A program made the translations under genes and the position numbers. 64,000 nt of DNA from Pyrinomonadaceae bacterium (GTDB lineage Bacteria > Acidobacteriota > Blastocatellia > Pyrinomonadales > Pyrinomonadaceae), in assembly GCA_036004125.1 (NCBI GenBank), contig DASYRR010000170.1:15611-79610 (forward strand), read 5' to 3'. Shown one piece after another: positions 33,511-41,007 of the stretch; position 1 is the first letter of the stretch; each line of letters opens with the position of its first letter. Below the pieces are notes generated by a model, which searched no databases, was not told where the DNA came from, and was given only the letters and a program-made list of their open reading frames with translations.

Positions 33511-33551
33511 GAGCCGAGCAGGACTCGAACCTGCGACCCACTGGTTAAAAG
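33511..33551 (-). repeat. 41-bp perfect direct repeat of the tRNA-Lys 3' half (distal att site)
   Basis: GAGCCGAGCAGGACTCGAACCTGCGACCCACTGGTTAAAAG is identical to 40936..40976. Confidence 0.9.
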
Positions 33552-33692
33552 AGCGGTAAGCGCGATTCCATCCAGTCACGGCTCTTACGATCTATTAACA
33601 TTTTACACAGGTTGCAGCCGCTTCGGAGTACATCTAGTAACAACCGTTCTCCCCTGTTTGCCGGTATTCACGCCACAAATTTGTCACAGGAG
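33541..33692 (+). repeat. copy B of att core plus element arm (homologue of 11607..11760)
   Basis: See copy A. Contains motif copy 3. Confidence 0.7.
33672..33690 (+). promoter_or_regulatory. GCCACAAATTTGTCACAGG motif copy 3
   Basis: Lies 131 bp from the att core, the same offset as copy 1 in arm A. Confidence 0.4.
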
Positions 33693-33872
33693 TTTAAGGG
33701 TCACAGTCCTTTCTATATAGATCGTCGCACAGAGACATTAGGTGGTAAGGTGACAACTCCGCAGCAGCGATTTCTACTTTTGAACAGTGCCCAAAGTGCA
33801 TCGTCCGACGTTAAGAGGCAGCGCGCCTTCATGACCGCGATCCTCTGGCGTCAGTGAGGAGTTCGAATCGTT

Positions 33873-34088
33873 CTATGATTTATCTAGGAGCGATAGCTCC
33901 TCTAGGACTAGGTTCTCGCCAATCTTCAGTCGAACAGGTCGGCCGAGACCATCTCTGACTTCACAACCGACGGCTGAGGCCGAATCAAAAACTTCGAGTT
34001 CTGTTTCGAGTGATTCCACATCCGTGTAGGATTCGACAGTACCATCCTCAAACCTAACGGAGATTGGAAAGAGTGGTTTAGGATTCAT
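33873..34088 (-). CDS. 71-aa acidic protein, putative cognate immunity protein of the Rhs toxin
   Basis: Starts 4 nt after the Rhs stop on the same strand. Acidic (ESYTDVESLETELEVFD). Position is typical of Rhs immunity genes. Confidence 0.55.
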   Translation of the reverse strand: MNPKPLFPISVRFEDGTVESYTDVESLETELEVFDSASAVGCEVRDGLGRPVRLKIGENLVLEELSLLDKS

Positions 34089-34092
34089 AAGA

Positions 34093-37000
34093 TCATAATT
34101 TCCTACCAGTCCAGAATCCGCGATGCAGCTTAATTGCTTTCTTTGTTAACCCCCAGTGCCAGTGGAGAATCTTGCGTGGACCGAGACTCTTTATATTGTG
34201 CCAATCTAGAGCAAAACGTCGTACTCCAAACCTGTACACATTGATCCCCCCACCTCCGGCATTCGGATAACGCAAGAATCGTATTCCCCAGCCACCTGCC
34301 TTCGCTACTTCCGCACCCGTAACGACATCCCAAACAACACCCGCTGCTTCGCCTCCAGTGTAAAACCAAGACGCTTCTCGCTCAGCATTATCTTGATCCC
34401 ATAACCTCCCTGCGGACTCTCCACCAAGCAGCTTCGCCAACCCTCTCGAAGCATATTTTGAGCCTCCAAATGTTATCCACCCCGAAAACCCTACAACGCT
34501 GGTAAGGGCTTTATCAGTACCAATACTGAGACTTCGACCCAACCTCTCCCAGATCGAATAACCCGCATAAATTGTGATGTCACAAGCACCGGGCGGACAC
34601 GGGCCGGTCAAGCCAGGGACATCACCCGGGCGGTAGGTACCGTCTTGACCCTGCAAACTGAAGCCCAGGCCGCCAGATCGACCGAATGCCCTAATCGCGC
34701 CATAGACATTCCATGCAGTTAATCCGAGACCCGCAATTAGGCCAACTGGGCCAGGCACAAATTGAGCTATGAGGCCCAGGGAGCCCACGGCTATTCCGGT
34801 GATCGCTGCCACCTCAACCGCTAAAGCAGCCGCAGTCGCTCCCGCGACCCCGGTAGCAGACAGAGCCCCTGCAAGAGCGGGGAGCATTACGAGGCTCACT
34901 ATGCCGACGACAATGAGCGCTACCGACACAGCGATTCCAATCCACTTGAATACCTTCTTCAAGAAGCTAAAGAAGCCGAGTCCACTCGGATCGGTGTTGT
35001 TGACTGGATCATTCGTGCAGTAAGCATAGAGATTGAGCGTTTGAGGATCCTCAAGATTTGTCGCATTGATGCCTGCAGGATCAACTTGGGTAAACCTTCC
35101 TTGCTGCGAGTCGTAATGGCGATTGACGGCGTAATCGAGAGTTGTGGTTAAGGATCGATCATAAGAAGTGAATCGTCGGTTGGTTGGTGTTCCCACACCT
35201 TCCGCAGCCAGTACAGTGCCAAAGGGCAAGTTAACTTGTTCGGACCAATTGCCGGTTGAAGGATTCGTCTCTATGCGTGTTCCTAATCGATCTGGGTGAT
35301 GATATTCGACGGCTTCGCCCCCAGTGCCATTCGGCGTCAACGTAGAAAGCAGACGGTTTCCGAGATGAACGTAACTCTTCGACCATGCGGGATTGACGGA
35401 CCCTCCGATCTCAATGTATTCCGCGATGACGGAGAAGCCTTCCGCGATGTAGTAAGTTCGGGTATTCGATTCTTCAGTGATTAATCTCTGATTGTCGTCC
35501 CCGTACGTGTAGCTGGCAACCACCGTTTGATTGTCATCTTTCACCCTGACCAGCCGATTGGCCGCGTCGTACTGAAAACGCTGCCACTGAGGGCTGCTTC
35601 CCGGAACGAAGGTGCGCGTCTGATTGCCCGTTGCGTCGTAATTCCACCCGTCGTTGGCTATGCGGTTCGTCGCTTGGTTGTACGCAATGCCTTGCAAGCC
35701 ATCGCGCGGAATCGTCACGCCCACAGGAGGTGCGTACGGGCTTATGCCTGCAACCTTCGTGTAGAACTCTGGCGCCCAGGCGAAGCCGTTGCGCACCTCA
35801 GCACGGCTCGTCCCATTGTTCAGTGTCGCTTCCCAGGAAGCCCAGCCGCCCGAGTCCGGATCACGATAGAGATAAGCCTTGTATAGGTCGTAAACATAAT
35901 CATGGTTGTTGCGATTTCGAGTGGCGTATTCCTGCGAGCTGAACAGGCTCTCACCCAGATTCTGCATTCCGGAGAGAAATTGCGACTGCCCCTGCGCGTA
36001 GGCTGATTGTAGCGTTGATAACCACGAACTCAGCTCGCTACTGGTAGGCTGGCGGTTCAATGCACCCTGATAGAAGTTCTTAATGTAGTCTTCAAGAATG
36101 AAGGAATAGACATTACGATTGCCAAAGCGATCGTATTCATACCGCTGTGCCCAGATGACGTTCTGCCCTCCAGTGGCTCGAATCAAGCGATCGAGCGCAT
36201 CGTATTCAAAGCCACGGTTTTTTGTGTTATCGAGATTATTGACGATCTTCGTCAGCTGGCCCGTGCGCTTGCCGTTCACGCCTGCGTAATCGTAAGAGAG
36301 ATTCAAAAGCGTCGAGCCGTTGCGCGACACGGTTTGGTTTTCAAGCAGTCCCGTCTGGAAATTGTAACCGTAAGATTCGTTGACTTGGTTCGTGCCAGTT
36401 CCGACGCTGAGCGAAGTCGTCTGGCTGCCAGCGTTGTAAACAATATTTGACGCTTGCGTTTGGCCGTCGAAGGTGAGCCCGCTCAAACGACTTGCAATGT
36501 CGTAACTGTGCTCGACAAACTTGCGGGGAGCGGCGCCATTGCCATATTCCGCTGGGTAAAGCACTCGCCAAACTCGATCAAGCGAGTCGTAATTGTAGTC
36601 CGTGTCAAATGCGAAACCCGGCCGGCTAGTTAGTGTCAATGTCTTCGAATTGATCCGACCTTCTGTATCGAAACCATAACTTTCGGTCGAAACGCCTGCG
36701 GTCGCGACGCTCGCCAGTTGCGTCACATCCAAGAGCTGCGCGCTGTAAGATTTGGTGCGGTAGCCGTAGGTGATCGTGGCCGCAGGTAGAATCGGATTGC
36801 TGGTGTCACCAAAGCCACTCGTGTCCCAGGAAACCGATTGCAAACGATTCAACGGATCGTTATTGTAACTGAAAACAGTCTTCACGCCACGCGCGTCAGT
36901 TCGCGAAATGAGATTCGATCGCTCGTCGTAAGTGAACACATCGCTCCAAGTGCCTGAGCCCACATACGCTCCCGCATCGTTAAGCGTGGGATTCATCTCA

Positions 37001-40436: not shown

Positions 40437-40857
40437 AAGCGTGCTCCTGGTAGGTGAAGACGGTTGGATACATTGAATCCACAAGTGGTCGTCGGTTCAT
40501 CTGACCGTGCCTTGCTGGCACAGCCATCGACACAAATCATGAACCTCTTGCGAAGTATTCGTTTGACGTGAAGCGCCGCACGAAAACGAATGCTACGACT
40601 CCCCGAATTCGATCCCAGATGAATTGGTTTTGGTGATCTTCGCGAGGGATCACCGTTAGAGTTCGAACACTACAACCTTGAGTGACTCAATTACTCAAGG
40701 CTAATTAACTGGGAATTGTGCGTGCTTAAATTAGGCGAAGCGCGACTACAGTGGGGGCTGATGCGCGGCAATCTACGCCCGAGTTGGTCCACTGTCAAAT
40801 GACATTTCTGTTGCGTCTATTTTGCAATCTTGCGACGAAACTATCGCAGGGAGAATT

Positions 40858-40876
40858 GCCACAAATTTGCCACAAC
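40858..40876 (+). promoter_or_regulatory. GCCACAAATTTGCCACAAC motif copy 4
   Basis: Lies 78 bp left of the att core inside tRNA-Lys. Confidence 0.4.
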
Positions 40877-40880
40877 AGAA

Positions 40881-40919
40881 ATGCGGCACGCCTCACAGCG
40901 AACCGCATCTAGTTTTTTT
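40881..40919. terminator. hairpin ATGCGG/CCGCAT followed by T7 (on +), just 3' of tRNA-Lys
   Basis: ATGCGG-16 nt-CCGCAT-CTAG-TTTTTTT. On the minus strand the same hairpin follows the tRNA 3' end and is trailed by TTCTGTTGT. Confidence 0.4.
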
Positions 40920-40931
40920 GCTTAGGAAAAA

Positions 40932-41007
40932 TGGTGAGCCGAGCAGGACTCGAACCTGCGACCCACTGGTTAAAAGCCAGTTGCTCTACCGACTGAGCTA
41001 TCGGCCC
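40932..41007 (-). tRNA. tRNA-Lys (anticodon UUU)
   Basis: The reverse complement is GGGCCGATAGCTCAGTCGGTAGAGCAACTGGCTTTTAACCAGTGGGTCGCAGGTTCGAGTCCTGCTCGGCTCACCA. It forms a cloverleaf with anticodon loop CTTTTAA and an encoded CCA. Confidence 0.95.

Follow-up and report, generated by a model that had tools for sequence, protein, structure and literature searches.

In this study, we describe a 7.4-kb segment at a tRNA-Lys(UUU) gene in a 64,000-nucleotide stretch of Pyrinomonadaceae DNA, which as a whole is called the window here. The segment (33510-40976) lies between two identical copies of the tRNA 3' half and carries a large Rhs gene, a small open reading frame (ORF) and no recombinase. It is probably an integrase-less derivative of a phage-like integrative element targeting tRNA-Lys(UUU), still flanked by attachment (att) sites. 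Cis-mobilizable elements (CIMEs) are defined as att-flanked segments without genes for integration, excision and transfer (PMC5704250), and the segment has this make-up.

The bracketing structure is formed by the following features:

40932..41007, minus strand: tRNA-Lys(UUU) gene with encoded CCA (ARAGORN; 75.3 bits on the Rfam tRNA model)
40935-40976, minus strand: repeat copy of the putative attL, identical with the 3' half of the real tRNA-Lys (repeat match)
33510..33551, minus strand: repeat copy of the putative attR, apparently the CCA-less 3' half of the native tRNA-Lys after displacement (repeat match)

An earlier note on this DNA had reported a perfect direct repeat of 41 bp. The repeat is real and perfect, but its actual length is 42 nt, one base more (33510-33551 and 40935-40976, 100% identical). 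Because ARAGORN and Rfam place the tRNA-Lys gene at 40932-41007 on the minus strand, the repeat spans the anticodon loop to the discriminator base, which agrees with the extent given in the note, from the anticodon loop to the 3' side of the acceptor. The note had also seen a tRNA-sized pseudogene in the distal copy and the next 33 or so nucleotides. This too is found: in the pseudo-tRNA at 33510-33584 (minus strand), made up of the distal copy and the adjoining 33 nt, acceptor stem and T arm survive and the remainder is lost, and the Rfam tRNA model gives it 17.8 bits as compared to a gathering score of 29. Direct repeats at the 3' end of tRNA-Lys are thus present on both sides, as attL and attR flank a CIME. 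The GC content of the element is about that of its flanks, so that base composition gives no island signal.

Assembly of metagenomes always carries a risk of false joins, and nothing beyond this general risk speaks for a chance repeat or a chimera at a repeated tRNA sequence. A 25-nt stretch of the repeat has exactly 2 copies in the window and 0 in 100 shuffles, so no match is expected by chance. Moreover, a contig assembled independently by JGI (L082) spans purA, MacB, tRNA-Lys, Rhs, the 71-aa ORF, the repeat and the gene of a glycogen-debranching-type enzyme (GDE) at 99.9% identity; since it crosses both junctions, the bracketed structure is no assembly artefact. Independent contigs L083, L084 and L086 likewise span the attR junction at 99.9-100% identity. 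Chance and chimera are refuted by these data, with next to no probability left to them.

The two repeat copies are set in different surroundings. CCA is encoded at the tRNA-proximal copy and absent from the distal one. In L090, a contig from a related species, MacB is 91% identical and DNA identity is 90% up to and through tRNA-Lys; MacB and tRNA-Lys are followed at once by DNA unlike the post-tRNA sequence of the window, and there is no insert. The native tRNA-Lys of L090 has no encoded CCA, like the distal copy of the window. CCA asymmetry and the pattern in L090 are both expected if an integrating element brought its own tRNA 3' half. The sequence beyond the distal copy fits in as follows:

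33487..33509, minus strand: outer (B') flank of the putative attR, resembling the L090 trailer (L090 alignment)

Positions 3156-3218 of L090 match 33551-33487 of the window with 90.8% identity over 65 nt, 42 nt of them core, a match that is suggestive only, because the element TCAATAACTT recurs in many tRNA-Lys trailers. L090 appears to count as an insert-free relative, short of a proven orthologous empty site. For the empty site and the alternative cargo that the earlier note had proposed to seek at this tRNA-Lys, the outcome is thus divided: an insert-free relative exists and related loci hold other cassettes, but exact-protein look-ups of GDE and MacB found no empty site from the same species. 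MacB homologues of 70% identity proved to be non-syntenic paralogues and were discarded.

From these observations we infer the following course of events. An attP-bearing element, made up of a P' arm, a 42-45-nt tRNA 3' half with CCA and a P arm, would have recombined with the chromosomal tRNA gene by means of a tyrosine integrase. The element's tRNA copy would now complete the tRNA gene and form attL (40838-40976), and the native CCA-less 3' half would have been pushed 7.4 kb away behind the P arm, forming attR (33510-33688). Integration and phage genes would have been lost afterwards, the att sites, the Rhs gene and the small ORF having stayed. In its present state the segment would be immobile alone, and excision or carriage would be possible only through an integrase acting in trans, e.g. 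that of a related element at the same tRNA.

Both proposed att sites have arms of defined sequence, and a further arm copy lies elsewhere in the window:

40838..40934, minus strand: P' arm of the putative attL (type I) with CCA, hairpin and tandem motif (recurrence in L106 and L156)
33552..33688, minus strand: P arm of the putative attR, a 137-nt conserved module ending in GCCACAAATTTGTCACA at 33672-33688 (metagenome loci)
11603..11755, minus strand: second, solo P arm with 77% identity, adjoining only 11 nt of core, CTGGTTAAAAG

In tRNA sense, the P' arm begins with CCA and a hairpin (40880-40909), followed by the tandem motif TTGTGGCAAAT TTGTGGCAAT at 40855-40875. It is 86-88% identical to the DNA left of the core in two internal junctions (L106, L156), and the likeness stops at 40838. 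In these junctions the P' arm is linked via the core to the 137-nt P arm, an order (P'-core-P) that would be expected of an attP or of a junction between tandem elements. The core-proximal 33 nt of the P arm are the degenerate 5' half of the pseudo-tRNA. The tandem motif GCCACAA-ATTT-GCCACAA, which has an 11-bp period, is present in 4 copies in the window versus 0.16 expected: one in each arm (40858-40874, 61 nt from the core; 33672-33688, 121 nt from the core), one outside the element (33261-33277) and one at 11739-11755.

An attP of the lambda type has a longer P arm, a shorter P' arm and arm-type sites. By analogy, the GCCACAA repeats at the outer ends of both arms resemble such sites. The motif's exact 18-mer, GCCACAAATTTGCCACAA, is found a few nucleotides past the stop codons of integrase genes on seven Firmicutes prophage contigs (L095-L101; IMG/VR; GC 34-39%); the integrases next to it carry an Arm-DNA-bind_4 domain, and in L095 it lies between int and sufB. 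These matches make an arm-site role of the motif a lead at most, since they belong to a single integrase family and one or two of them could, by our estimate, be due to chance. The solo P arm looks like a secondary-site or decayed junction, and its joining to nothing more than the anticodon-loop 11-mer hints at a crossover in the anticodon loop. Its position is immediately upstream of a small ORF and of the gene for an ECF (extracytoplasmic function) sigma factor (12123-12737).

Concerning the content of the segment, the DNA between the repeats holds the Rhs gene (two ORFs), the 71-aa ORF and 321 + 450 nt of non-coding arms, as the earlier note had stated with its figure of about 750 bp for the arms. 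Neither a recombinase nor an excisionase nor a transfer gene is present between the repeats according to the ORF list, Pfam and NCBIfam, which confirms the note in this respect as well. The integrase gene that a tRNA-targeting tyrosine-integrase island or prophage carries is accordingly missing from 33510-40976, and no integrase remnant was seen inside the element. Scanning the window's ORFs of at least 120 aa for integrases with Pfam revealed one recombinase, a XerC-like or integron-like tyrosine recombinase of 288 aa (3898-4764). Having neither an arm-binding domain nor a link to the att module, it is an improbable cognate integrase and was set aside. Directly downstream of it lies an IS91-family transposase gene (Y2_Tnp and zinc-binding domain), the pair occupying 3021-4764 on the minus strand.

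Related loci were found by exact-match searches of metagenome contigs seeded on the window's own sequences. They were searched for integrases with phmmer and three recombinase queries, with motif regular expressions and, for selected ORFs adjoining a unit, with Pfam. This search, of limited sensitivity, revealed no intact cognate integrase across some 0.5 Mb of such loci, nor was one found in the window. What does adjoin the core, on its P' side, are tyrosine-integrase stubs of C-terminal sequence whose reading direction is towards the core: the stub ...FHDVRHTFG...GHQS... of L124/L115 runs into the core, and the stub ...MIDLTYSHV...LYGT* of L163/L166 and L171 lies 95 nt from it. More stubs are found deeper in arrays (L109, L117, L172). 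When the L163 stub served as a protein query, all matches were fragments, 53-106 aa long, and none was a full-length integrase. One of the matches is on L180, a 34.9-kb contig labelled as a viral operational taxonomic unit (vOTU), which at 8309-10356 contains, in this order, a split terminase, a 59-aa truncated integrase, an arm that bears CGCACAC repeats and, last, a full tRNA-Lys(UUU). It is a defective prophage occupying the same site. Because stubs and the L180 terminase adjoin related att sites, the parent elements seem to have been integrase-bearing and at least partly phage-like. Of the trans-acting integrase with a matching attP for which the earlier note had called, the P'-core-P junctions and the stubs have thus come to light, but an intact enzyme has not. 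A scan of viral contigs with a 20-mer of the P arm gave no match. A 72-codon ORF (33502-33720, plus strand) crosses core and P arm in the same frame as the L124 stub enters the core (...SRAGLEPATHWLKE...); it is unlikely to be coding sequence, since indels in other copies of the unit speak against it.

The arms belong to a family. One exact 20-mer of the window's P arm yielded 73 soil-metagenome loci carrying the same unit, in which the tRNA 3' half is joined to the 137-nt arm with the motif at its end; about 39 versions of the unit are distinct, and these are 85-93% identical to the window. The unit is sharply bounded across these versions and the core copies are perfect in nearly all of them; in 666 of 1035 locus pairs the likeness begins at most 3 nt from the tRNA acceptor end. 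Between the window and L104, L140, L157, L168 and L169 the P arm is 85-92% identical, as compared to 73-77% for the purA DNA of these loci. As it is better conserved than purA, the P arm is either under selection as DNA, as would be expected of a recombination site that has to be recognised, or recently spread. Its conservation would argue against a purely neutral fossil.

On contigs of sufficient length, namely L104, L140, L147/L157, L153, L168 and L169, the unit is situated beside purA, a few kb downstream of a complete tRNA-Lys and in the same orientation. Complete arrays from the terminal unit to tRNA-Lys, with one or two cassettes, are present in L147/L157, L153, L168 and L169. The units fall into two classes. 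Terminal units have CCA-less, A/T-rich trailers like that of L090, and 15 distinct ones show such native-type trailers. Internal units have CCA followed by a hairpin, tandem repeats and sometimes an extra tRNA fragment, as is the case after the cassette-proximal tRNA-Lys, and every real tRNA-Lys adjoining cassettes in the metagenome loci has CCA. This pattern would be the trace of successive integrations at one tRNA. A diverged second tRNA-Lys fragment, reaching from the anticodon arm to the acceptor (loop e.g. TCGAAAA), occurs in L102, L120, L135, L140, L152, L153 and L168, about 50-110 nt downstream of tRNA-Lys or internal cores and ahead of a hairpin resembling a terminator. Possibly this fragment represents an earlier stratum of att remnants.

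The cassettes carry genes for Ser/Thr kinases with TPR repeats, ECF sigma factors, CadC-like regulators, a cupin, PD40 and NHL propellers, a PAP2-type enzyme and a radical-SAM protein, and no recombinase was found among the cargo of the loci examined. L126 and L141 have a 2.2-kb core-to-core cassette in common (95.5% identity), the DNA to the left of it being unrelated. In L133, L159 and L144/L172, unit and cargo are common to the loci from the exact first base of the core. The element of the window is no isolated case but one of many integrase-less cassettes at tRNA-Lys in soil Acidobacteria.

These loci raise the question of whether the family is still at work. In a live system mobilised in trans, a module of about 280 bp, consisting of P' arm, tRNA half and P arm, would be a recombination site under selection, an integrase made elsewhere by a phage or other element would insert and excise cassettes at tRNA-Lys, build arrays and reshuffle them, and the Rhs cassette would be one unit among others. 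The superior conservation of the P arm over purA, the perfect cores, the identical cassette in differing contexts with breakpoints exactly at the core, the five independent complete arrays without integrase and the existence of P'-core-P junctions all agree with such a system. Static tandem arrays, however, predict these junctions equally. Furthermore, stubs are all that is linked to the module at any locus, intact integrases being absent, an empty site from the same species was not found, and the decay of the Rhs cargo described below fits a resident relic. We consider a live system possible but doubtful. For the element of the window itself, mobility in trans seems less likely than not, the missing integrase and the decaying cargo speaking against it.

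A different explanation of the same family does without site-specific integration. Here the unit at 33510-33688 would be a chromosomal feature that arose by an old duplication of tRNA-Lys, possibly a small RNA or regulatory element, and the DNA in between would be exchanged by homologous recombination. High conservation and sharp edges of the 190-nt unit are compatible with this, as is the synteny of purA, tRNA-Lys and unit in several genera; unequal crossing-over at the cores could produce internal units with the downstream flank of the tRNA, and a core-core deletion would yield a tRNA like that of L090. For a structured small RNA gene, though, no support was obtained: across 32 sequences RNAalifold detected 0 compensatory pairs and its covariation term was positive, the window copy folds no better than shuffles (z-score -0.53), and the tRNA-sense strand has no Rfam match other than the sub-threshold tRNA. 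A hairpin tested by hand (AACAGG...CCTGTT) was dropped as well, its variation being mostly on one side. Moreover, integrase stubs and a terminase adjoin such sites, the P arm is unlike the region upstream of the real tRNA, the solo P arm at 11603 is joined to nothing but the anticodon-loop 11-mer, and the distribution of CCA fits cores borne by an element. An origin by duplication is therefore quite unlikely in our view, and a CIME-type derivative of an integrative element remains the reading we prefer.

The cargo of the segment comprises the following features:

34093..40089, minus strand: main Rhs ORF, 1998 aa (Pfam, NCBIfam, translation)
39999..40484, minus strand: N-terminal Rhs fragment of 161 codons with signal-peptide-like start and Ig-like domain (homologue alignment)
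36082..38276, no strand: 2195-bp segment deleted in some contigs of the same species (L082, L085)
33873..34088, minus strand: acidic 71-aa ORF, immunity candidate by position (ORF list, translation)
40770..40798, minus strand: TTGACA-17-TAGATT, a site resembling a promoter, ahead of the Rhs leader ORF (consensus scan, 10/12 matches)

The main ORF encodes RHS/YD repeats (PF05593, TIGR01643), a DUF4214 insert and the Rhs-associated core (Rhs_assc_core, TIGR03696, residues 1622-1704), where the translation reads ...NNTDPSGLG and shows the DPSGL motif. It thus combines the YD/RHS repeats and the PxxxxDPxGL-type core of Rhs/YD polymorphic toxins. Behind the core follows a C-terminal domain of about 296 aa, which starts with a long hydrophobic stretch and has no sequence match in Pfam, NCBIfam or PDB; its relatives are distant ones in other Rhs proteins only. 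Most of 616 Rhs homologues cease to match at 85-89% of the length, and the best of them, about 2100 aa long, are 60-76% identical across 85-89% of the length. The domain after the core is thus variable, as in polymorphic toxins, and its toxicity is predicted. The 71-aa ORF begins 4 nt past the Rhs stop codon and has no family match in Pfam or NCBIfam and no PDB sequence match; the exact protein is encoded on 8 contigs, in each beside the same Rhs. On position alone, it is a candidate immunity gene. The promoter-like site is a candidate only, as such sites are not enriched over shuffles.

What the earlier note had taken for a detached leader ORF is in fact the N-terminus of the Rhs protein, cut off by a frameshift. 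The leader overlaps the start of the main ORF and is 65% identical to residues 10-141 of an intact homologue of 2105 aa (P0121). Since it aligns with the homologue's N-terminus, leader and main ORF are one Rhs gene, split by a frameshift near 40010-40030 that is also present in the independent contig L082. The identical 2195-bp deletion was found in two assemblies from different samples (L082, JGI 3300036852; L085, Logan SRR11829679). It joins 38277 to 36081 with a 2-nt microhomology and is out of frame. The Rhs gene therefore has no intact reading frame in any of these versions, and frameshift and deletion indicate that the toxin gene is decaying and being lost in the population.

Regarding the movement of the toxin gene, the earlier note had gone beyond the evidence in stating that the locus moves as a site-specific module rather than by tip recombination. 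The Rhs cassette of the window is known from one context and one species only. Its closest homologues (L175-L179, 72-76% identical) sit at other loci without the tRNA-Lys module. What sets them apart from the window's Rhs is above all the C-terminal tip, a difference of the classical Rhs kind that shows ordinary tip diversity. Movement as a site-specific module is plausible. The contig of the closest Rhs exists in two forms (L175/L176, about 14170-15832). The tRNA-Arg(CCG) is intact in L176; the sequence of L175 departs from it within the anticodon loop of this tRNA, with the gene of a 333-aa integrase some 600 nt beyond. Tandem AAAAAGGGGGAC repeats, of the same kind as the GCCACAA motif, are located near the junctions of L175/L176.

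Several points weigh against reading the segment as the remnant of an integrated element. Neither a cognate integrase nor an empty site from the same species came out of the searches described above. Synteny downstream is not kept, and relatives bearing GDE have no tRNA-Lys nearby; the flank match to L090 extends just about 23 nt past the core and includes a common trailer motif. The arm-site interpretation of GCCACAA is an analogy, the Firmicutes matches being from one integrase family. The sample of loci is skewed to close relatives of the unit because of exact-match seeding on the window's sequence. Finally, homologous recombination by the host between repeated cores could also yield junctions at the core edge.

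Both flanks consist of housekeeping genes. GDE (31032-33122, plus strand) lies on one side, and its relatives put the organism in the Pyrinomonadaceae (Acidobacteriota); a MacB/FtsX permease gene and then purA lie on the other. In ten relatives with GDE, synteny with the window stops at the GDE stop codon and no tRNA-Lys is present within 10 kb, which makes the junction region a synteny breakpoint. In several other genera purA directly adjoins tRNA-Lys, and in the window MacB/FtsX stands between them; these observations concern 33076-33122, for the end of GDE, and 41179-45218. One more feature was found on the GDE side:

33258..33361, minus strand: apparent older relic beyond the native trailer, consisting of a 15-nt tRNA fragment (33347-33361) and the third copy of the tandem motif, at 33258-33278 (repeat search)

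The same layout of motif, about 70 nt, GACCCACTGGTT, about 150 nt, trailer and core recurs left of the terminal units of L103, L114, L134 and L173. As the end of a second element the relic was rejected, since in other genomes it is conserved downstream of tRNA-Lys as a native feature. A 21.7-kb "second element" (11603-33361) was likewise abandoned, the block at 20-33 kb being syntenic in many relatives.

Taken alone, the locus is an ordinary relic of a kind already known, an integrase-less tRNA islet with a toxin gene breaking down. Its worth lies in the family, where one well-kept att module, better conserved than purA, delimits dozens of integrase-less cassettes, unrelated to one another, in soil Acidobacteria, members of a phylum in which mobile elements have received little study. 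Soil Acidobacteria, including Pyrinomonadaceae, might even run a cassette exchange at tRNA-Lys(UUU), with integrase-less cassettes, an attP-like module of about 280 bp constrained more strongly than housekeeping genes and a trans-acting, probably phage-encoded integrase that would insert, stack and swap them; on present evidence we find this somewhat unlikely. If true, it would be an exchange system functionally integron-like yet based on tRNA att sites, and the Rhs islet would be a mobile toxin cassette. Discovery of a helper integrase would reveal by what route regulators and toxins are exchanged among large acidobacterial genomes at a single tRNA site, and it would show that an Rhs locus can travel as a site-specific cassette besides tip displacement.

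Among known systems, integron cassettes are alike in being promoter-poor units without recombinase that carry a recombination site and are arrayed at a fixed site, which is a functional analogy only. In the window's site, a tRNA half with duplex-type arms, no attC-like imperfect hairpin and no covariation-supported fold was found, and no IntI-type integrase is adjacent, so that identity with integron cassettes was rejected. With a lambda-type attP the module shares a core identical to a tRNA 3' end, a longer P and a shorter P' arm and tandem repeats at the outer ends; in contrast to lambda, no integrase, excisionase or host-factor sites are identified for it, and the role of GCCACAA is putative. 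The cargo corresponds to Rhs/YD polymorphic toxin loci (rhs-CT plus immunity gene) in its YD repeats, DPxGL core, variable C-terminal domain and small downstream ORF, and also in that homologues have N-terminus and core in common and differ in their tips, the pattern of C-terminal displacement. It departs from them in that the gene lies frameshifted inside an att-flanked islet, with no secretion-system genes nearby in the window. In Prochlorococcus, islands shaped by tycheposons result from successive integrations at tRNA genes and contain partial tRNAs and fragmented integrases (10.1101/2020.12.28.424599). Partial tRNAs, integrase fragments and cargo that outlives mobility genes are found here too. 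Active tycheposons, however, bring an integrase and often replication genes, none of which occur in the cassettes examined, and the repeated unit of the window's family has a long conserved arm beside the partial tRNA. As compared to streptococcal CIMEs, the host is a member of the Acidobacteriota (Pyrinomonadaceae), the parent seems phage-like, as suggested by the L180 terminase, rather than conjugative, and the element is known from sequence alone, with no known helper element. Its att arms are conserved well beyond what has been reported for CIMEs. With these elements, among them the CIMEs of the tRNA-Lys hot spot in Streptococcus agalactiae, it shares the tRNA-Lys 3' end as its site and tandem accretion with other elements at that one site.

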